From: Candidatus Pacearchaeota archaeon
Lineage (GTDB): Archaea > Nanobdellota > Nanobdellia > Pacearchaeales > GW2011-AR1
DNA length: 64,000 nucleotides
Direction: 5' to 3'
Assembly: GCA_016186425.1 (NCBI GenBank)
Contig: JACPLR010000007.1
Coordinates: 2,838 to 66,837, forward strand
The notes beneath the pieces were generated by a model, which saw nothing but the letters and a program-made list of their open reading frames with translations, had not been told where the DNA came from and did not search any database. A program made the position numbers and the translations under genes. This document shows positions 1 through 50,332 of the stretch, one piece after another. How positions within the stretch are numbered: position 1 is the stretch's first letter; every line of letters starts with the position of its first letter.

Positions 1-432
1 ATAAGTGTTGCCATAACTGCTTTTATAGGAAGTTTATTTACATCTACTGAAGTTAATAGTGTATGGTACAATTCAATCAAGCCATCTATAACTCCTCCAA
101 GTTGGGTTTTCCCAATTGCCTGGACAATACTCTATATTTTAGTAGCTTTTTCAATATACTATGCATGGACCTCTTCAAAAAACATCAAGCAGAAAAAAGT
201 TATAGGAATTTTATTCGCGGTTAATTTATATTTTAATATTTTATGGTCAATAATATACTTCGGTCAGCAAAATATTAAATTAGCCTTAATTGATGCTATA
301 TTTATCTGGATTTCAATAGCTGTTTTAATAGTTAACACATATAAACTAAGCAAGAAATCAGCTTATCTACTAATCCCATATCTTATCTGGGTAAGCTTTG
401 CAATTATCCTTAATTATCTAAGCATTTATTAA
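1..432 (+). CDS. tspO: TspO/MBR tryptophan-rich sensory protein, C-terminal part (5' end lies outside window)
   Basis: Frame 1 is open from base 1 to TAA at 430-432. Translation ...WYNSIKPSITPPSWVFPIAWTILYILVAFSIYYAW...LIPYLIWVSFAIILNY fits the TspO/MBR multi-TM family. Confidence 0.75.
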   Translation: MSVAITAFIGSLFTSTEVNSVWYNSIKPSITPPSWVFPIAWTILYILVAFSIYYAWTSSKNIKQKKVIGILFAVNLYFNILWSIIYFGQQNIKLALIDAIFIWISIAVLIVNTYKLSKKSAYLLIPYLIWVSFAIILNYLSIY

Positions 433-21971: not shown

Positions 21972-22937
21972 TCATCGTCGAGAAAAATCCAAATTCCTGA
22001 AACTTTTATCTTCAGTTCCTTTGTTTTGCGTGGATTGTGAATTAATTGCTGTTCCAGATCCACTGCCTGGCGCTGGTTTTTGGAGGGTTTTCAAATTGCT
22101 AGTTTTGCCACTATTTCTCTTGCGATAAAGCACAACTATTATTGCAATAATAGAAATAATAATTAAAATAATTATAACAATCAATATGATAAGCCAAGTT
22201 CTGTTTAATTTCTGCGGTTCTGCAACAGGACACATGCCGCTGCAATCATAGCTGCAGGTATCGCAACTCTCTCCATTATCAGTATTGCAAACATTATCTC
22301 CGCAATAAGGAGCTTCAACAACAGGTGTAGGAGGTGTTGTAATAACTATCGGACAGGCTCTTATTTCTTCGGGTTTTCCACTATCTCTATTACATATTAT
22401 ATCTCTACATGTTCTCGTACCACAACTATAAGTTTTATTAGACCAAGTAGTACAACTCCATGTTGAATCACACCTGCCTCCCCCTCCACCTCCGCCGCCA
22501 CCAGGCGGCGGCTGTGATGGATTTGCCTGACACTGATTATTAGCATTGCAAAATTGTCCAGAAGGACAATCAGAACTTGCAGCACAACCACTTGCTCCTC
22601 CTGTAAGTAAATTAAGAATTTGCTGTAATAATGTCTGATTTAATGATGTATATCTTAATTTACATACTCCCTCAACACAAAGCGAATTCAAGCATTCATA
22701 ATCATTTAAACAATTTGAACCTCTCTGTCTCTGATTTAATAATGTGCCATTTAAACAATATTGGCTATTATTAAAAACATCTCCTTCATCAATGCAAATA
22801 TTCAGGCTATTAACATAACATTGCCCTTGATTAGGGCATGTCGAAGAAGGTTGAGCATAAACTGATTGAAAACTAAAAAATAAAATAAATAAAAAAAAGA
22901 AAGGCAATACAAGAAAAGGTAAAAGTTTTTTTACCAT
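21972..22937 (-). CDS. Cys-rich surface protein with N-terminal signal peptide, poly-Gly hinge and C-terminal TM anchor
   Basis: 321 aa. Signal LPFLVLPFFFLFILFFSFQSVYA. CLNDYECLNSLCVEGVC motif shared with the giant neighbours. PPPGGGGGGGGGR run. TM WLIILIVIIILIIISIIAIIVVLY followed by RKR. Its ATG lies 1 nt after the upstream stop. Confidence 0.75.
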   Translation of the reverse strand: MVKKLLPFLVLPFFFLFILFFSFQSVYAQPSSTCPNQGQCYVNSLNICIDEGDVFNNSQYCLNGTLLNQRQRGSNCLNDYECLNSLCVEGVCKLRYTSLNQTLLQQILNLLTGGASGCAASSDCPSGQFCNANNQCQANPSQPPPGGGGGGGGGRCDSTWSCTTWSNKTYSCGTRTCRDIICNRDSGKPEEIRACPIVITTPPTPVVEAPYCGDNVCNTDNGESCDTCSYDCSGMCPVAEPQKLNRTWLIILIVIIILIIISIIAIIVVLYRKRNSGKTSNLKTLQKPAPGSGSGTAINSQSTQNKGTEDKSFRNLDFSRR

Positions 22938-22938
22938 C

Positions 22939-25900
22939 TTAACCTCCTGCTGCTTGAATACATTGATTTCTTGAGTCTGAATTAAATGGATGTTGTATAA
23001 AGCATGAGATTGCAGCCCATATGCTTTTTAATAATCCTGTTTGTTCTTTAAATGCGCCACAAACTCCTTCTATACAAACATTGCTCTCACACTCATAATC
23101 ATTTAAGCAAGAAGCAGTAGAATTCCCCGCTTTTTTATATACAAGTGTCGCAGGATCACAATACCATACTTTATTATCATTTGATTTTACTCTGGTTTTT
23201 CCAGGCACTTCGCTTGAAATTCCATTACCAGTATTAGCTAAACATTTATTTCTTCCAGGAGGGCCTTCACAATTTGCGCTGCATTGTCCGTCTTCACAAC
23301 GAGTCTGCCCTTCTGGACATGCTTCTATTTTTACAAATGTTCTCCCATCAGAAGATTCATAAGCATCATCTCCATACCATAATACTACCTTATTATTAAT
23401 TTTCTCAACATATCCAACACTAGGCACTCCAGAAGGCAAACCGCTTAATTCTCCAATAACATTTATATAATTGCCTCCAGAACTTGAATTTGATTTATAT
23501 AATCCAATACTCATAGGTGCAGTTGCTGAAGAACCCGATGTTGCAGGGCTATTAATTGTTCCTACAATCAAATACCATAAATAAACAGCATCATCGCCAG
23601 TTAAATTAGAGTAATAACCTAAGTTTGGAATCTTATTTGTTGGAAGTCCTCCTTGATTAAACAGAACATTTGCAAAAGTTCCGTTTCCGTATCCAACATA
23701 TCTATCACTTCCATTCCATAAAACTATTCTTCCCCCATGTCCTTCTAATGGATGCCAATAAGCATCTGTAGGAATAAAATCTCCAGGTAATTTTCCTCCC
23801 TCTCCACTGCCTCCTCCTGTACTAGATGAAAGTCTTTGCATTTTCCCGGTAGTATTCCTGAAATATATTTCCCTGTTTGCATTCCATAATAAAATACTAT
23901 CATTTCCAGGAAATCCTTGATAATATCCTATAACAGGTTTAAAGTCTGCTGGCAAACCTTCTGCAACCTTAGTTGTAAATTGTGTAAACCTTCCTGTGTT
24001 TCCTCTATAAATAAATGCAGCTCCACTCTCATTCCATAAAACAATTGCTCCTCCGCCATACGGATGCCAATATCCAAATTTAGGTATGAATCCTGCCGGC
24101 AATCCAGGATAAGCTCTTACTCCTTCAATATCTCCGCCACCACCGCCAGTGCCTCCAGCACCACTTTGGCAAAATCCAGTAGCAGCATTACAAAAACTTT
24201 CTGTAGGACAATCTTGTCTTTCTGTTGCAGGAGCGCAAGGAACTCCAGGAAGGGTATTTGTTTGAGCAGTGCAAGCAGCATTAGTGCCACTGCCTGCTGT
24301 TAAAGTTATATATTTTACAATTGGAGAAACAGTTCCAGAATTAAAACTACATGCAGAACCATTCCAGATTTTATAACCTGTAACATCTTTTACAAGAATA
24401 TATATTTCTTTATTAGAAGGGACAGCTAAAGAAACTCCTGCTTCAGAATAACCTGCCATAATCTCATTAACCCTGCTGCTTATAATTAATTGATTAGTTG
24501 TTTTATCATAAACTTCAACTGTTCCTGATTTATCCACTGCAGAAGCGGGTATAAAAAAATGAACACTAAGAGTAGTAGTCCCTGCTACAACGACTCTTTC
24601 AACAGCTGTAAAAGTTGCTCCGTCAGTTGATTCATAAGCATCAGCTCCATACCATAAAACAATTTTCTTTCTTATATTATCAAAATAACCTGCAGTTAAC
24701 ACTTGATTTGTTGGCAAACCAGTAGGAGAAATAAGATTAAACTTGTTCTCTGACTGGCTCCAATTATAAAGTTTCAGCTGCCCATTAATTTCATACCATA
24801 ACTGAACCCCTTTCTGTGCAGTAGAAAATTCGTAATAATAACTGACTTTTGGAGTTCCTGTTCCTGGCAAATTATAATTTACAGGATTAATTTGTGAAAA
24901 AACACTATCGCTAGCTGCAATATACCATTTTGTTGCATCAAATAAAGAAACTCTTCCGCCGGTAGTTCCCAAATTATGCCAGTAACCTGTCTTAGGAACA
25001 AAGTCGTAAGGCAATTCTCCCGGCTTTGTATCTGCTGCATTGCCAATTCTATCAGAAATTTTAGTATATTTTCCTATTACATAACTCCAAAGATACATAA
25101 CCCTATTACTATCACTTAATATTATTGTTTCTTTTCCAGAAAATCCTTGATACCATCCATAGGTTGGCTTGTAATCTCGTGGCAAACCAACAATATCTTT
25201 TCCTCCAGCTCCAGCATCATTCCATAAAGCAAAATTAACTCCATTAGTTGAATAGTAAACTCTCCCATTTGCATCCCATAATACAAGAACCCCTTTATTT
25301 GTTGCAGGAGCTGAAGGATTTCTATGCCAATATCCAAACCTTGGAGTAAACCCTGCAGGCAAACCAGTATACTCTCCAGAAGTTGCTGGGCATGATTGTA
25401 TCTCACTTGGCTTATTAGTTATAACTCCGCAATTATTGGAATCTGTGCATGTTCTTGTTTTAACTCCATTTACACAATTTACATTATCCCATGATGCAGG
25501 ATTGCAAGTCCAGGACGGAGTGCAAGTAACCGAACCCGGACAAGGATCAAATTCACAATTCAAAGCAGGATTTCTTCCAACAGAACTTCCATCAGGACAA
25601 ATTTTAGCTTCCTTTGTACAAGCAGAAGTACATTGAGTTGTTCCAGTTCCTGTTTCTAATGTTATTGTTTTTGTAACAACGCCTCCACTTACAGTAAGAG
25701 TAAAAGGACAATTTATACCATTAAAATCTTTATAGCCATTAACATCTTTAATATAAATATAAATAGGAATATCAAGAATATTTGCGCTAGAAGATGAAGG
25801 AAATGAAGCTGAAAAAGCACCGGCAACTTGTAACCCCAACCTAACATTATTATTAGAATCTAAAACTTGATTATCAGACGCTCTTCTTATTTCTATTGTA

Positions 25901-26088
25901 GCAATATTATCTGCAGAACCCTGAGCATTTGCAACAACATCCAATCTTGGAGGAGAACTCAACTGCGGCTTACCTTTAAAAGAATCAATAAAATCAGTAA
26001 ACCAATTTGCAGAAACAAAACTCATCGCCAAAAGAATAAAAATGACTAATATTGATACTAAAATAAATGCGCTCACACCCTTTTTCAT
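22939..26088 (-). CDS. giant secreted Cys-rich repeat protein (1049 aa), paralog of 28146..30989
   Basis: Signal/TM then SFVSANWFTDFID. Two internal copies of [Ig-like beta domain - Cys-rich knot - five GLPxxFxPxxGYWH...LW units]. C-terminal CLNDYECESNVCIEGVC plus a helix. Confidence 0.8.
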   Translation of the reverse strand: MKKGVSAFILVSILVIFILLAMSFVSANWFTDFIDSFKGKPQLSSPPRLDVVANAQGSADNIATIEIRRASDNQVLDSNNNVRLGLQVAGAFSASFPSSSSANILDIPIYIYIKDVNGYKDFNGINCPFTLTVSGGVVTKTITLETGTGTTQCTSACTKEAKICPDGSSVGRNPALNCEFDPCPGSVTCTPSWTCNPASWDNVNCVNGVKTRTCTDSNNCGVITNKPSEIQSCPATSGEYTGLPAGFTPRFGYWHRNPSAPATNKGVLVLWDANGRVYYSTNGVNFALWNDAGAGGKDIVGLPRDYKPTYGWYQGFSGKETIILSDSNRVMYLWSYVIGKYTKISDRIGNAADTKPGELPYDFVPKTGYWHNLGTTGGRVSLFDATKWYIAASDSVFSQINPVNYNLPGTGTPKVSYYYEFSTAQKGVQLWYEINGQLKLYNWSQSENKFNLISPTGLPTNQVLTAGYFDNIRKKIVLWYGADAYESTDGATFTAVERVVVAGTTTLSVHFFIPASAVDKSGTVEVYDKTTNQLIISSRVNEIMAGYSEAGVSLAVPSNKEIYILVKDVTGYKIWNGSACSFNSGTVSPIVKYITLTAGSGTNAACTAQTNTLPGVPCAPATERQDCPTESFCNAATGFCQSGAGGTGGGGGDIEGVRAYPGLPAGFIPKFGYWHPYGGGAIVLWNESGAAFIYRGNTGRFTQFTTKVAEGLPADFKPVIGYYQGFPGNDSILLWNANREIYFRNTTGKMQRLSSSTGGGSGEGGKLPGDFIPTDAYWHPLEGHGGRIVLWNGSDRYVGYGNGTFANVLFNQGGLPTNKIPNLGYYSNLTGDDAVYLWYLIVGTINSPATSGSSATAPMSIGLYKSNSSSGGNYINVIGELSGLPSGVPSVGYVEKINNKVVLWYGDDAYESSDGRTFVKIEACPEGQTRCEDGQCSANCEGPPGRNKCLANTGNGISSEVPGKTRVKSNDNKVWYCDPATLVYKKAGNSTASCLNDYECESNVCIEGVCGAFKEQTGLLKSIWAAISCFIQHPFNSDSRNQCIQAAGG

Positions 26089-26411: not shown

Positions 26412-28112
26412 TTACTTCTGTCTTTTATATTCTCTTTCAATATCTTTCAAGCTGGCAATCTCGCTTAATGGTTTGTCTATTCTCAAAGCAGTCACTCTAG
26501 GAAATCTTAAAGCATATCCCGAAGAATACGTCGGGGATTTCTGTATTTCCTGAAATATAACAGAGACAATTATCTTTGGCTTGACTTTCACTTCCTTGCC
26601 AGAAGATTTAATAATTAAAGGTTTAAGCAAATTAGTTAATTCTAAGAAAGAAACGCCTATATCTAATTTTTCTTTAATACCAGTGCCCACTCTGCCTATT
26701 TCTAAAAATTCCCCTTCTCCATGTTTATCAGATTTACAAGCCAAAATAAAACTGCTGAGCCAACCAGCCCTTTTTCCAGTCCCATACTCTGCACCAATAA
26801 TAACTAAATCAAGATCTCTATGTTCTGGCTTTAATTTTAACATGTAGCCGACTCTTGATCCGGGTTTGTAAACTGCATTTAAATTTTTAATCATCAAACC
26901 CTCCTGATTTAATTTTAAAGCCTGATTAAAAAATTCCTGCGCCTTTTTCTCATCATTAGTAATCAATTGCTTTGCGCAAACTAATTTATATTCCTTATTT
27001 TTAATAATTTTTCTTAGAGTCTTTGTTCGCTCTATAAACGGCTTGCTAATATAACTTTCTCCATCCAACATAAGAAGATCAAAAACATTAACTTCAACAG
27101 GAAAATCCTTAGCCATTTTTTCAAGGTCATACTTTCTTTTAATTCTCTGGCTGATTGACTGGAATGGTAGGTATTTTTTAGTCTTGGGATCATAACCAAC
27201 AACTTCTGAATCAATCATAAATGACTTGGCATTTACAAATTCTTTAACAAAAGAAACAACATCCGGGAATTGCTTTGTGACATTTTCAAGCCTTCTTGTG
27301 AAAAGGCTGATATTGCCTTTTTCATCCTTATTAATCATAAGCCTAAAGCCATCATACTTAAATTCAAATGCTGCCGGTTTTCCGACTTTTTCAAATCCCT
27401 CTTCAATAGTATCAACTTTCTGAGCCAACATTGCCCTAATTGGAGCGCCAGCTTTCAAAGTAACCTTTCCCAATTCCTTCAGCCCTTTTCTAGCTTTTTC
27501 AAATATTAAAGCCATATCTGGATTAAGATCATAGGCATGCTGAATTATTTCAGAGGCTGATTTTTTATCATCGTGGAAAAAAACTTCTGAAATAGAATCT
27601 CTAAGTGTGCTGTCCTGAACTCCAATTCTTAAATCAGCAAGTAATATTCTAACAAGATACTTAGCTTCAATTGGCTTGGAATTAGATAACAATCCAGCAA
27701 TTAAGTCTATTTTCTTCCCAACAGTCCCTTTTCCCTGCATTTTAGCAAGTTCACGCAAGTCTGAAATTATTTTTTCAGTTGTTAATTCCCCATGAAATAA
27801 TCCTGATTGTTTTTTTCCAGCTATCAGCAATTCAGCAACCTTTCCAAGATCCCCAATTTTTTTCCATTCCCCAACTATTTTCTCATCGTTAATTCCAGTA
27901 GCTTTAGCAAGAGCTTTAATAACTGTCTGTGTGCTTATTCCAATTTCCCTTGCATCATAAGCAGGATACAAGCTTCCCAGCAGCAAATAAAGAACATCTT
28001 TATCTTTCTCATTAATTTTCTTCAAGAACTCGGATAATATTGCAATTTTCTCAAGGCGTTTTGTCGTTCCGCCAAGTTCTTCATAAACTTTGCATAATTC
28101 AGAATATTTCAT
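26412..28112 (-). CDS. lig: ATP-dependent DNA ligase (Lig1 type)
   Basis: 566 aa. Adenylation motif I FEFKYDGFR, EGLMIKNL, and the LKLKPE motif. N-terminal DNA-binding domain pattern. Confidence 0.9.
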   Translation of the reverse strand: MKYSELCKVYEELGGTTKRLEKIAILSEFLKKINEKDKDVLYLLLGSLYPAYDAREIGISTQTVIKALAKATGINDEKIVGEWKKIGDLGKVAELLIAGKKQSGLFHGELTTEKIISDLRELAKMQGKGTVGKKIDLIAGLLSNSKPIEAKYLVRILLADLRIGVQDSTLRDSISEVFFHDDKKSASEIIQHAYDLNPDMALIFEKARKGLKELGKVTLKAGAPIRAMLAQKVDTIEEGFEKVGKPAAFEFKYDGFRLMINKDEKGNISLFTRRLENVTKQFPDVVSFVKEFVNAKSFMIDSEVVGYDPKTKKYLPFQSISQRIKRKYDLEKMAKDFPVEVNVFDLLMLDGESYISKPFIERTKTLRKIIKNKEYKLVCAKQLITNDEKKAQEFFNQALKLNQEGLMIKNLNAVYKPGSRVGYMLKLKPEHRDLDLVIIGAEYGTGKRAGWLSSFILACKSDKHGEGEFLEIGRVGTGIKEKLDIGVSFLELTNLLKPLIIKSSGKEVKVKPKIIVSVIFQEIQKSPTYSSGYALRFPRVTALRIDKPLSEIASLKDIEREYKRQK

Positions 28113-28145
28113 AATATTAAAGAAAAGAAAAAAGAATATTTAAGT

Positions 28146-30989
28146 TTATCCTAAAAAATTATTTATGCATTGCTCACGTTGTTCTTGACTAATTGGATGT
28201 GCAATTAAACAAAGGAGAGATATTGCGTACCTCTGAAATGCATTGACTTTATTAATTTCCTCTTTTATAGGCAAACACTCTCCAGATGAACAGAAATTGC
28301 TCTCACATTCATAATTATTCTGGCATTTTGCAACGCTTCCATCATAATCTTTTATTTTTTGCTCATTTATATTTCCATCATAATTACAATAAGAGTTTAT
28401 ATCTCTAAGGAAAGTCATATCAACATAATTTTCTTCACTATTTAAAGCAAGAAAATTGATCCCATCAATTCTCACAGGTATTTCTAAACCTTCAGAATCT
28501 GGATTAACAATTGTTATTCTATCACCTAAGAATAGATTATAAGTTATATTCTTTTCTTTTCCAATCAAAGTGAACCTTGCTTCATTATCTGAAAGAACAT
28601 CTAATATAAAATCGTCAACATTATTTATTTCATATAATCTATTTTTATCTGATTCTTCATAAATAAATCTAGTTCCATAAGGAATGCAAACATTGTCGCT
28701 GAATTTATAATCAGCCCACCTAGGAACTAAACATCCGGCGCAAATTCCAGGGCTGCAATAAGATTCACGAGTTACATCTGGGCTATTACAATCAGAATTA
28801 TCAATACATGTTGTTGTTTGTCTTCCGTGAGGCGGACAAATAATAGGCTCTGTCTTGCACTGGTAATAAGGTTCGCATGTTTCCAAACTAATTTCAGAAG
28901 AACATTGGGAAAGGCTAACTTCAATTTGACGGGACAAAGGATAAGGTATCTCAAAATCCTCCCAGTTAACAGAGTTAGCATCATTATTTTGCAAGGCATT
29001 GATAAAATCATTTAACTTATACTGTGAAAGCTTAAGCAATTCTTCATCAGAAAGTTTTTTTCCACTGCTTACATATACCACAACTGCAATATTATCTTTA
29101 ATCCATATTACCTCTCGCGTTTTATAATTATATTGGTCAAGATCCTGATTTCCATAAAATACATCCCAATTGCAGATGTAAACTTTATTTTCTTTATTAT
29201 CTGAACTCCAGTAAGTTCGTGGTTGACATATTCTTCCAGATATAGTAGAATCAATCCAAGAACTTAAATTCAAATCTTGATTATCAAAAACATTAAGATT
29301 ATAGTCAATATTATAATTCACATTATCATAATAAGTATGCCAAGAAGCATAATAATGAGTTGTAGGATAATCTTTTCCATTAATCCAAACACTGCTTCTT
29401 TCACTTGAATTCCACCCAAGGTTATATACTATATTATAATCAAAGAAACTAGCTGGCTGAGCTACTTTTTTAATCAGGTCAGGACAAACATTTGATGGCT
29501 CAATAATAATAATAGGACAGTAAAAAGTCATTACATCACTTCCTGTTGTTTGCGGAAAATTCAAAGTTACTTTTATTGCATCCATATTAAATGAAGGACC
29601 ACTATAAGTTAAGCCATATTCCATTCCACCAATTGAAATTGTTGTTAAACCTTCTATTGAGGTAGAAGCTGTTGTGTAAACTTCATTTGTAAGCACGTCT
29701 TTTAATTCGACTTTATCTCCCTCTCCCTGAGGATATGAACTATTTATAACAGTTTGAACTCTTAATAAATAACCAGGAATAACAACATAATTTCCTTTAT
29801 AAAATACCTCGCCTTCTTTTACTACCACAATCTTGCCTTGAGATTGTAAATTAGTTATATTTATTCTTATTTCATTATTTAAATAACCACAGCCATCAAC
29901 TTCTGTTAAGCCTCCAACAATACAATCACCATTACTACAACCATTAGGACAAAGATTACAACCTGCTCCTCCTGAATTTGCAATGCACTGCCCATTTTGA
30001 CATATATAAGTAGTAGTTGAAGTACAAGAAGAGTCTCCAGAACAATAATTCCTAGAAGTTGACGGACAATCACTATCACTAGAACATTGAGAAGTTGATA
30101 TTCCAACATTTACTTTATAGTAAATTCTTCCATCACCTGACTCGTAAACTTTATCATTAAACCATAGGATAACTTTCTTTCTTATCTTATCAAAATAAGC
30201 AATATTCGGAGTATTTGGGATTATTGTGCCATCAGACAATCTTGGCCTTACAGCCCCGCTAAATTTACCAGTAGAAGAATCATATCTATAATAACCTTGA
30301 GAGGACCATAAGTTAGTTGACTCAACCTCTCCTATAACATAATTAACAACTGCCAAAGGCAAATTTGGCATTTCTAATAAACTGCTCTGTGAAAATTTTA
30401 AATCACTTCCAGCACTATATTCTTTATAAGTTCCACTTGTCTGGCCCCAAAAGATTATTTTCCCGCCATTAAATTTATGGAAAATGCCTTTTTGTAAAAC
30501 AAAATCGCTAGGCAATCCAACAGCCACCATCATTTCATTTGTAAATGGTTCAAACTTTTTTGTATTCGGATTATAAACATAAACCATGCCATTACCATCT
30601 GATAAAATTATCCTTCCATTACCATCTCCAAAAGCATGATAAAAACCAACTCTTGGCTTGAAATCAGAAGGCAAACCAGAAGCAACTTTTTCTGCATCAC
30701 TCCACTTAACAAATTTCAAACCATCACTTGAAAAATAAGCCTGTCCATTTACATCCCATAAAATTATTTTTCCAACAGAACCAGCTGGAAAGGGATGCCA
30801 ATAACCAACAACTGGCTGAAAACCATCAGGCAACCCTTCAAATATTGTTGTCCCAGGGCTTAAAGAAACTTCTTTTCCACTTAGTTTATCAAAAAAATCA
30901 GTAAACCAATTTGCAGAAACAAAACTTAACGAAATAATAATCATTAAGAACACTATCGAAAATAAAAATAAATTCACCCTCTTTTCCAT
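28146..30989 (-). CDS. giant secreted Cys-rich repeat protein (947 aa), paralog of 22939..26088
   Basis: Signal/TM then SFVSANWFTDFFD. One five-unit GLPxxFxPxxG(Y/F)(W/Y)H...LW block (aa 51-293), Cys-rich regions, and C-terminal CQNNYECESNFCSSGEC plus a helix. Confidence 0.8.
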   Translation of the reverse strand: MEKRVNLFLFSIVFLMIIISLSFVSANWFTDFFDKLSGKEVSLSPGTTIFEGLPDGFQPVVGYWHPFPAGSVGKIILWDVNGQAYFSSDGLKFVKWSDAEKVASGLPSDFKPRVGFYHAFGDGNGRIILSDGNGMVYVYNPNTKKFEPFTNEMMVAVGLPSDFVLQKGIFHKFNGGKIIFWGQTSGTYKEYSAGSDLKFSQSSLLEMPNLPLAVVNYVIGEVESTNLWSSQGYYRYDSSTGKFSGAVRPRLSDGTIIPNTPNIAYFDKIRKKVILWFNDKVYESGDGRIYYKVNVGISTSQCSSDSDCPSTSRNYCSGDSSCTSTTTYICQNGQCIANSGGAGCNLCPNGCSNGDCIVGGLTEVDGCGYLNNEIRINITNLQSQGKIVVVKEGEVFYKGNYVVIPGYLLRVQTVINSSYPQGEGDKVELKDVLTNEVYTTASTSIEGLTTISIGGMEYGLTYSGPSFNMDAIKVTLNFPQTTGSDVMTFYCPIIIIEPSNVCPDLIKKVAQPASFFDYNIVYNLGWNSSERSSVWINGKDYPTTHYYASWHTYYDNVNYNIDYNLNVFDNQDLNLSSWIDSTISGRICQPRTYWSSDNKENKVYICNWDVFYGNQDLDQYNYKTREVIWIKDNIAVVVYVSSGKKLSDEELLKLSQYKLNDFINALQNNDANSVNWEDFEIPYPLSRQIEVSLSQCSSEISLETCEPYYQCKTEPIICPPHGRQTTTCIDNSDCNSPDVTRESYCSPGICAGCLVPRWADYKFSDNVCIPYGTRFIYEESDKNRLYEINNVDDFILDVLSDNEARFTLIGKEKNITYNLFLGDRITIVNPDSEGLEIPVRIDGINFLALNSEENYVDMTFLRDINSYCNYDGNINEQKIKDYDGSVAKCQNNYECESNFCSSGECLPIKEEINKVNAFQRYAISLLCLIAHPISQEQREQCINNFLG

Positions 30990-48988: not shown

Positions 48989-50332
48989 TTATTCACAAAC
49001 ATCGTTATCAGTACAAGAATCTATTTCCTTAGTAGTCTCACAAGTTAAATAAGTCCTGCCCATCTGATCTCCATTAGGGCGCAATCTAACCCACTCTTTT
49101 ATAAGATCTTGAGTGCATGAATTATAAGAACTAACTGTAAGATCTTTACAATAAGACATTAAATCATCTTTAATCACACATGACCTGCAATTAAAAGGAA
49201 ATAAATTTTTACAATAATCTTTAATGCCCATGTGATGTCCCGTCTCATGAATTATATTCTCGACAATTTTATCATCTGTCAACTCTTGATAATAAGATGC
49301 ATCAAATAAAGTAAAACTTGGAAGAAACCATCCAGCAATCTTGGGATTATTAACATAAATAAGTTTATAATTATTTGAATGAAAAGCCGGAATTCCGCCT
49401 TCACTTGGTTCTCCTATAACTATTAAGAGATCGAAATTATCTGGATTTGTATTAGAAGACTTAACCTTACTAAAAATTGCTTTTAAAAAATTTTGAATAT
49501 TTCTTTGACCTGATGATAAACTATATTCAAACCAAACTCTTTGTTTATTAATGGAGCTTAGCCAGGTTAATGGTGAACTATAAGTTACAGAGGCAATATT
49601 ATCCCAGACTCTAGAACCATCTGATGTATCCATTATTTTATAATCATAATTTGAAGGGATATCTGTACGTTTAAGATATTCACGATATACATCTGGATTT
49701 TCAATTATAAAATCCAAAGGAGAATCACCTACAGGAAGATCTGTAGAAATAACTTTATCAATTTTTAGTACCACCATACCTTTAGTGGCCTCATAAAACT
49801 TATCCTCTATTTTAGGTTTAAGGGAGTTTAACCTATTCAATGGTACAAGTGAATTTCCATATCCAAATAATAAAGCATTAATAACTGGTTCTTTGATACA
49901 ATCATAAGTTCCGCTTCCAGGTTGCATATTTATTATTCTTTTTATACTCTGACCAGAATAAATATCAAATCTGCAAGGATATCCATTCCAAGACTTATAA
50001 TTATCAACTCCTGCAGCGTAAATATAAACAGATCTTGGTCCAACATAATTTGTTGGAACATTAAAGATATAATACCCCTGATCCATTGAAAGATAATTGG
50101 CTACTAACTGCTTTCCTGTATTGGCATCAATAATCACAACACCTCCAGTTTTATCTAAAGGAAAAGTATCTCCTGGAACAGTTAATTTAACTGACACATA
50201 AGCAATTGGTGGAGGGGCAAGTTGAACATTTTCCTTGTCTTGGTAACTAAAATAAAGATTAACAGCACTAGCAACAATTATAATTAATGAAAGAGAAACA
50301 ATTAAGCTAGTCATCACCTTCTTTTTATTCAT
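48989..50332 (-). CDS. secreted metzincin-like zinc metalloprotease with N-terminal Ig-like domain
   Basis: N-terminal TM/signal. HETGHHMGIKD fits HExxHxxGxxD. A downstream DLMSY may be a Met-turn. The N-terminal 100 aa resemble the Ig-like domains of the 1049-aa protein (...YIYAAGVDNYKSWNGYPCRF...MQPGSGTYDC). Confidence 0.65.
   Translation of the reverse strand: MNKKKVMTSLIVSLSLIIIVASAVNLYFSYQDKENVQLAPPPIAYVSVKLTVPGDTFPLDKTGGVVIIDANTGKQLVANYLSMDQGYYIFNVPTNYVGPRSVYIYAAGVDNYKSWNGYPCRFDIYSGQSIKRIINMQPGSGTYDCIKEPVINALLFGYGNSLVPLNRLNSLKPKIEDKFYEATKGMVVLKIDKVISTDLPVGDSPLDFIIENPDVYREYLKRTDIPSNYDYKIMDTSDGSRVWDNIASVTYSSPLTWLSSINKQRVWFEYSLSSGQRNIQNFLKAIFSKVKSSNTNPDNFDLLIVIGEPSEGGIPAFHSNNYKLIYVNNPKIAGWFLPSFTLFDASYYQELTDDKIVENIIHETGHHMGIKDYCKNLFPFNCRSCVIKDDLMSYCKDLTVSSYNSCTQDLIKEWVRLRPNGDQMGRTYLTCETTKEIDSCTDNDVCE

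Follow-up and report, generated by a model that had tools for sequence, protein, structure and literature searches.

A predicted five-bladed beta-propeller family in putative surface proteins of Pacearchaeota-type archaea

In a 64,000-nucleotide stretch of the genome of a Candidatus Pacearchaeota archaeon (assembly GCA_016186425.1, contig JACPLR010000007.1, positions 2,838 to 66,837 of the forward strand; hereafter the window), two minus-strand genes encode large proteins, here named A and B, which together contain three copies of a block built from five units of about 50 residues. The two genes flank the gene for an ATP-dependent DNA ligase, and the gene next after that of protein A encodes a third protein, C (Table 1). 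The window has a G+C content of about 30% and also encodes an intein-containing MCM, TBP and ribosomal protein L15e, like the ligase archaeal housekeeping proteins; the source genome comprises 868 kb in 29 contigs, with an estimated completeness of 88%, and belongs to a small-genome DPANN archaeon that is probably a symbiont. Of the four copies of the block in this genome, three lie in the window; the fourth is part of a 698-aa protein encoded on contig 2. The block is predicted, with high confidence, to fold as a five-bladed beta-propeller of about 250 residues, in which each unit supplies one four-stranded blade.

The initial annotation had described the three blocks, each of five units, from the letters of the window. 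Its coordinates and the peptides it quoted agreed exactly with the sequence. The three blocks align over their full length at 34–36% identity with 56 invariant columns, and the signature said to end each block, (F/V)(D/E)(K/N)I(R/N)(K/N)K(I/V)(I/V)LW...YES.DG, falls in these columns. We counted the units with a profile hidden Markov model (HMM) built from the units of relatives, the window's own sequences being excluded. This unit HMM found five and five units in protein A (Table 1) and five in protein B, where three were strong (aa 52–101, 104–152 and 158–203) and two weak at the expected places. Full-sequence E-values were 7e-87 for protein A and 7e-42 for protein B, and 400 shuffled copies of A and B scored at most 5.6 bits. 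Thus, the five-unit substructure is far beyond chance.

To the proposal that these units are four-stranded blades of a five-bladed propeller, structure prediction gave a favourable answer. An AlphaFold2 model of protein B aa 43–297, computed from a 27-sequence alignment, is all-beta, with a mean predicted local distance difference test score (pLDDT) of 91.7 and a predicted TM-score (pTM) of 0.89, and all five models had a mean pLDDT of at least 89. DSSP assigned four strands to each of the five units, the fourth of blade 3 being a two-residue bridge only, and a further N-terminal strand (model residues 7–9) before the first GLP. When the model was compared with known structures by Foldseek, all 50 of the PDB matches listed and nearly all of the BFVD matches listed were beta-propellers, with a probability of about 1.0 and TM-scores of 0.25–0.53. 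These neighbours were of several types: WD40 (most hits), the PknD NHL sensor domain, tectonin 2, CV39L, hemopexin-like and Kelch. None of the matches listed was a close structural neighbour, the best reaching TM 0.51–0.53 at a root-mean-square deviation (rmsd) of at least 5–6 Å. Judged by their family names, the targets have four, six, seven or more blades, and modest TM-scores are expected for a five-bladed query compared with targets mostly of other blade number. Closure of the ring we infer from the pTM and from the fixed number of units.

The 27 family domains were cut into units to derive a consensus and to count residues at each position. Units 1–3 follow xGLPxxFxPxvGYYHxfxGGrIxLWDxxGxxYxSxxGxxF, unit 4 is degenerate (PxxxPxvgYY...LWy..G..Y), and unit 5 is distinct and the most conserved (GLPsGxPtxGYyDxirnkvVLWYGxxAYeSxDGxnF); we take this last unit to be the closing blade. 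Mapped on the strands, a GLPxxFxP linker is followed by strand A (xvGYYH), strand B (rIxLWD), strand C (xxYxS), an Asp-box-like S-x-D/N-G turn and strand D (Fxxv). Conservation in the unit falls on Gly, Pro, aromatic and aliphatic residues of the core, hence on structural positions. A different pattern is seen at unit position 15, at the end of strand A: His occupies it in 17, 12 and 17 of the 27 sequences in blades 1, 2 and 3, many members having S, N, Q or Y instead; the residue is Y or F in blade 4 and, in 25 of 27 sequences, Asp in blade 5, the sole near-invariant acidic residue of the family. Together, core-residue conservation and the position-15 pattern disfavour a hydrolase-type centre and would be compatible with the binding of a metal or other ion at the mouth of the channel.

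One relative stands apart in its units. In P0033, a 1926-aa subtilase with CARDB (locus L009:90-5870), the propeller at aa 56–300 has blade pairs that are up to 71% identical, compared with a mean blade-to-blade identity of 22–25% in the window's proteins, and its blade 5 stays distinct. From the sequence, this pattern suggests recent amplification or homogenisation of blades within the propeller.

How widespread is the domain? Searched exhaustively by HMM, a set of 1.84 billion representative proteins yielded 98 relatives at E ≤ 1e-3, 68 at 1e-10 and 16 at 1e-30, among which 29 domains span the whole 250-aa profile; a word-indexed homologue search with protein B aa 40–300 returned protein B itself only. 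Counted with the unit HMM, 41 arrays have five units, one has ten, one has nine and none has six to eight, and arrays below five are mostly fragments or cases in which the degenerate fourth unit was missed. A fixed number of five units is as predicted for a closed five-bladed domain. The domain was present in two of 401 sampled genomes of the phylum, namely the source genome and one other of the same genus (one of the two sampled from that genus). A pattern-limited scan of 185,579 species genomes, based on a six-sequence alignment, added four carriers, all Pacearchaeota or Woesearchaeota, and the domain was not found in a viral contig collection. The relatives that bear a name are likewise all from metagenome-assembled genomes of Candidatus Pacearchaeota or Woesearchaeota. 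Four divergent members (P0031, P0037, P0083 and P0057) lie on short contigs that bear no taxonomic marker.

Searches against described families gave no competing assignment. Proteins A and B matched nothing beyond noise in Pfam and NCBIfam at E ≤ 1, the 27 family domains scanned one by one against Pfam at E ≤ 10 had no family in common, and the domain profile found nothing meaningful among PDB sequences at E ≤ 10. Neither a Pfam propeller family nor a YD/RHS repeat model matched A or B (Pfam and NCBIfam, E ≤ 1) or any of the 27 members (Pfam, E ≤ 10). The block is therefore a small sequence family that lacks a Pfam or NCBIfam model and is so far known only from DPANN archaea of the Pacearchaeota/Woesearchaeota type. 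Where the initial annotation had suggested a new type of beta-propeller, the novelty lies in the sequence family; the fold is that of an ordinary propeller.

The full-length family members point to an extracellular setting. An N-terminal hydrophobic segment is present in 69 of 78 and a C-terminal transmembrane-like segment in 15 of 78, and the propeller starts within the first 120 aa in half of them (39 of 78). Fusion partners in the relatives include Inhibitor_I9 with Peptidase_S8 and CARDB, Laminin_G_3 (several times), dockerin, FG-GAP, CarboxypepD_reg and peptidase M64; with fusions so varied, the propeller behaves as a portable extracellular accessory module. A vWA domain was looked for in 22 members and was absent from all of them. 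In proteins A and B, inspection of the N-termini found an h-region that runs into ...SFVSA followed by NW, and the first 46 aa of protein A are 52% identical to the N-terminus of protein B. Judged by this N-terminal segment and by the extracellular modules fused to the family, both proteins are probably secreted or cell-surface proteins.

Table 1. Coordinates of genes, domains and modelled strands (window positions; residues are those of the protein, or of the protein B model where so marked)
Feature	Residues	Window position	Strand	Basis or remark
Protein A gene	1049 aa	22939..26088	(-)	Open reading frame
Protein B gene	947 aa	28146..30989	(-)	Open reading frame
Protein C gene	321 aa	21972..22937	(-)	Open reading frame
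Putative signal peptide/anchor, protein A	1–27	26008..26088	(-)	MKKGVSAFILVSILVIFILLAMSFVSA followed by NW; read from sequence
All-beta domain 1, protein A	58–166	25591..25917	(-)	Duplicated at aa 517–615; AlphaFold2 all-strand
Trp/Cys knot, protein A	187–233	25390..25530	(-)	First copy only
Propeller block 1, protein A	241–496	24601..25368	(-)	Predicted blades 241–287, 301–347, 359–402, 405–456, 457–497
All-beta domain 2, protein A	517–615	24244..24540	(-)	Duplicate of aa 58–166
Propeller block 2, protein A	661–921	23326..24108	(-)	Predicted blades 662–707, 711–752, 766–805, 814–838, 882–921
C-terminal Cys-rich module, protein A	946–1049	22942..23253	(-)	...CLNDYECESNVCIEGVC... then amphipathic tail
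Propeller block, protein B	51–293	30111..30839	(-)	Block modelled; five blades of four strands
C-terminal Cys-rich module, protein B	about 865–944	28158..28397	(-)	
Blade 1 strands, protein B	model 17–23/32–37/42–45/50–53			DSSP
Blade 2 strands, protein B	model 70–76/84–89/94–98/103–107			DSSP
Blade 3 strands, protein B	model 122–129/135–142/145–151 and two-residue bridge near 158–159			DSSP
Blade 4 strands, protein B	model 171–177/180–187/190–195/200–203			DSSP
Blade 5 strands, protein B	model 221–225/230–235/238–242/247–254			DSSP

Protein A reads, from its N-terminus, as a putative signal peptide, a probable beta-sandwich, a Trp/Cys knot, propeller 1, a second sandwich, a Cys-rich linker, propeller 2 (with a Ser/Gly-rich insertion in blade 4) and a C-terminal Cys module. 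The initial annotation took the whole unit of Ig-like domain, Cys knot and block to be duplicated. Duplication of aa 58–497 and 517–922 is real (BLASTP E = 1e-51, 33% identity) and does not extend to the Trp/Cys knot, at whose place the second copy has a different Cys-rich linker and the alignment is gappy. The Ig-like label is weakly supported: an AlphaFold2 model from three sequences was all-strand at a pLDDT of 55, and its best Foldseek matches were transthyretins at E of about 0.01 and TM of about 0.55. A beta-sandwich that is more transthyretin/prealbumin-like than Ig-like is thus plausible, on a weak model. The same all-beta domain recurs at the N-terminus of a 447-aa secreted protein (48989–50332, minus strand), which has an HExxH motif (HETGHHMG); Pfam gave no match for this protein, and an uncatalogued zinc metalloprotease is a possible identity.

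Protein B has a simpler order, with a putative signal peptide, the propeller, a long Cys-rich and beta-rich stalk and a C-terminal Cys module. This module, of about 100 aa, contains ...CxNDYECESNxCxxGxC..., an amphipathic stretch and a last Cys; it forms the C-terminus of both A and B and of 10 further family proteins (12 of 78 full-length), has no Pfam model and could be a docking or sorting module. In protein C, a putative signal peptide precedes a Cys-rich ectodomain, and a C-terminal transmembrane helix leads into a cytoplasmic tail. Its ectodomain combines a Trp/Cys knot with a CLNDYEC...EGVC motif that is common to the protein A module, and aa 56–92 (22662–22772) are 46% identical to that module (E = 6e-8). 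Protein C might tether protein A and is a candidate for its membrane anchor or partner. The stop codon of protein A and the start codon of protein C are separated by a single base (TAA g ATG), with GGAGGT just upstream (window 22930–22950); this spacing suggests translational coupling of the secreted two-propeller protein with the membrane-anchored Cys-rich one.

Two further observations concern these modules. The Trp/Cys knot, of about 47 aa (CxPxWxC...W...C.NG...R.C.D.N.CG...P...C), occurs, often in tandem, in 27 of 41 genomes drawn from the taxonomic family of the source organism, and it matched no Pfam model. The fourth paralogue of the source genome, the 698-aa protein (propeller at G000:C2:17054-17821; locus L004:424-2520, minus strand), has an N-terminal transmembrane segment before the propeller, then a Cys-rich stalk and a C-terminal transmembrane helix, and ends in a Pro/Gln-rich cytoplasmic tail; among the proteins that carry the genome's four propeller copies, it alone has its own membrane anchor.

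Comparison with the same-genus genome allowed the propeller protein to be set against its neighbour. The DNA ligases of the two genomes are 57% identical; the propeller protein directly downstream is 35% identical, and its length is 558 instead of 1049 aa. This stronger divergence than that of the ligase neighbour points to a rapidly evolving surface protein at a conserved locus. The order of ligase followed by propeller surface protein (window 26412–30989) is kept in the same-genus genome (G237:C10:20940-23687) and is also found on an unrelated metagenome contig (L021:1223-7705), which has a LamG protein at the place of protein B. Between the genomes, the surface proteins at the ligase locus differ greatly in length and domains.

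What, then, is the role of the propeller? We propose, with a probability of about 0.6, that it serves DPANN surface proteins as a non-catalytic head for recognition or adhesion; the fold and the family are much firmer than this function. The propeller is probably exported behind a signal peptide and usually lies at the N-terminal, presumably membrane-distal, end of Cys-rich modular surface proteins, where a lectin-like or adhesin-like head could bind a ligand carried by a polymer or by the surface of a partner or host cell. Two such heads would be displayed by protein A and a single one by protein B, with protein A possibly tethered by membrane-anchored protein C. We favour a non-catalytic head because of the N-terminal segments, the accessory fusions, the structural character of the conservation, the fast divergence and the precedent of Mia14, a cultured DPANN archaeon ('ARMAN') that has secreted proteins with Kelch/YVTN propellers and CARDB as well as a LamG expansion, for which host or cell-cell contact was proposed (PMC5498576).

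Several points weigh against this proposal. The family is rare, with two carriers among the 401 genomes of the phylum, both of the window's genus, and so cannot serve DPANN archaea at large for attachment. Because most of the 98 relatives are metagenome proteins that carry no label, a restriction to DPANN is not proven. Neither protein A nor protein B has its own membrane anchor, and retention of the two at the surface is therefore an assumption. Finally, the position-15 His and Asp residues may ring one mouth of the central channel in the model, and such a ring could indicate a metal site, or even catalysis, over simple binding.

The last point is the basis of an enzymatic reading, in which the His residues of blades 1–3 and the Asp of blade 5, at the ends of the inner strands, form an enzyme or metal-dependent active site. 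Many five-bladed propellers are indeed enzymes (GH43/32/62/68 and bacterial glutaminyl cyclase), and the frequencies at position 15 given above are what such a site would draw on. We nevertheless consider it very improbable: the His positions vary, with Y or F in blade 4, an acidic triad is absent, the 27 members had no Pfam glycoside-hydrolase or cyclase match at E ≤ 10, no five-bladed enzyme appeared among the top 50 Foldseek matches, and relatives carry the domain as an extra module beside a complete catalytic S8 subtilase. Least probable of all, in our view, is that the ring itself is an artefact of repeat-driven prediction, the real structure being an open beta-repeat array, a ring completed by a second chain or a propeller of another blade count. 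AlphaFold2 readily closes repeat proteins into propellers, the alignment held only 27 sequences, the best TM-scores to real propellers are only 0.4–0.53, and closure was deduced from the pTM and the number of units, which also counts against our proposal. These concerns are offset by the confidence and agreement of the five models, by the regular four strands per unit, and by a unit number that is five across the family (save one array each of 9 and 10), as expected of a closed domain; the distinct, conserved fifth unit fits a closing blade, and low TM-scores are expected against targets of other blade number.

A structural role is a more serious competitor, though still an unlikely one. Here, the propeller would be an element of the envelope, such as an S-layer or sheath lattice or a spacer, that has no external ligand and serves only the self-association of surface proteins. 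Archaeal surface-layer proteins built from propeller and PKD modules are on record, as in the Methanosarcina mazei SLP (Jing et al. 2002, as cited in PMC5498576); conservation dominated by core structural residues would suit such an element, and the Cys-rich modules common to proteins A, B and C could interlock. A lattice protein would, however, be expected in most related genomes and not in so few of those sampled. The domain also behaves as an accessory, fused to proteases, LamG, CARDB and dockerin in many architectures, and diverges much faster than the neighbouring housekeeping gene.

The recognition head can be extended to a joint reading of the locus, which as a whole we regard as distinctly doubtful. 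The propeller would then be a lineage-specific host-recognition head of Pacearchaeota-type episymbionts, in which a ring of three His and one Asp at the channel mouth retains a metal or a charged ligand. The products of the B, A and C genes, which are arranged around that of the DNA ligase, would make up a dedicated device for attachment, in which soluble A, with two heads, and soluble B, with one, dock via the C-terminal Cys module onto membrane-anchored C. The speed at which the propeller proteins diverge between species of one genus, and the shuffling of their domains, would in such a scheme track host switching.

DPANN archaea such as Pacearchaeota and Woesearchaeota are uncultured and presumably live attached to other cells; little is known of the molecules that make this contact. 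The present analysis defines a foldable 250-residue module that has no database model, occurs in four copies in a genome of 0.87 Mb and occupies the presumably exposed end of secreted proteins that evolve fast. For curators it is a new family to model; for experimenters it is a small soluble domain suited to expression, to structure determination and to probing for a partner organism or ligand. Because the fold is ordinary, the result is useful to the specialist and not surprising.

Resemblances to known propellers remain to be set in order. WD40 propellers provided most Foldseek hits, and the unit profile matched them with E-values down to 7.5e-14 (Nostoc protein, PDB 2ymu, and the designed WRAP-T proteins). 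We rejected homology and read this as motif resemblance: the match is confined to a 13-residue strand, ggrIsLWdanGni against DKTVKLWNRNGQL, worth 3.4–4.5 bits and summed over 7–13 identical repeats (3.4 bits per repeat over 13 repeats in 2ymu). The likeness thus amounts to that between the unit strand rIxLWDxxG, the second of the unit, and the WD40 motif, and PF00400 matched none of the 27 members at E ≤ 10. WD40 propellers are typically intracellular, with at least seven blades.

The family's S-x-D/N-G-x-x-F turn lies between strands C and D, the place of the Asp-box in BNR/Asp-box propellers of the sialidase-like clan. Membership was rejected: the turn of blades 1 and 5, S-x-[DN]-G-x-x-F, is one residue shorter than S-x-D-x-G-x-T-W. 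PF02012 and PF13088 (BNR_2) matched none of the 27 members in Pfam at E ≤ 10, and BNR_2 had no match in the source genome at E ≤ 1, in a search whose controls responded in 6 of 14 genomes. Hemopexin-like domains have blades of about 45–50 aa, a G-L/F-P linker before the inner strand and an aromatic-rich second strand, and Foldseek matched MMP14 (PDB 3c7x) at E = 4e-5 and a target-normalised TM of 0.50, no better than the WD40 matches. They have four blades and a DAA motif; this domain has five units and an inner strand GYYH that lacks DAA, and gained no support for PF00045 from Pfam or PDB sequences, so this candidate was rejected as well. Kelch propellers typically have six blades and a GG doublet followed by Y and W. 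The Kelch models (PF01344, PF13964 and related) matched none of the 27 scanned domains, and the only Kelch trace was a Kelch_6 score of 24.4 bits in relative P0035, below the 25.3-bit cut-off.

Closer in setting are propellers that work outside the cell. The sensor domain of PknD from Mycobacterium tuberculosis (PDB 1rwl) is an extracellular propeller of similar size and among the best Foldseek matches (E = 6e-6, TM 0.51/0.51 over 259 columns); it differs in being a six-bladed NHL propeller, superposed at an rmsd of 6.0 Å and 12% identity, and no NHL Pfam match was found in the 27 members. Lectin propellers such as tectonin 2 of Laccaria bicolor (PDB 5fsb; TM 0.44/0.49) and CV39L (6gxs) are small, non-catalytic, extracellular domains with repeats of about 40–50 aa that bind sugars. 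The five-bladed lectin tachylectin-2 has the same five-repeat plan as this domain; it was not among the top 50 Foldseek matches and gave no meaningful PDB sequence match at E ≤ 10. YVTN propellers have seven blades. Archaeal surface proteins with YVTN or Kelch propellers differ from ours in that the latter gave no YVTN or Kelch Pfam match, have five blades of about 50 aa and are joined to another Cys-rich stalk and C-terminal module. The two groups are alike in being secreted modular envelope proteins that combine a propeller with CARDB, LamG or other adhesion modules, are strain-specific and are proposed to act in cell-cell contact.

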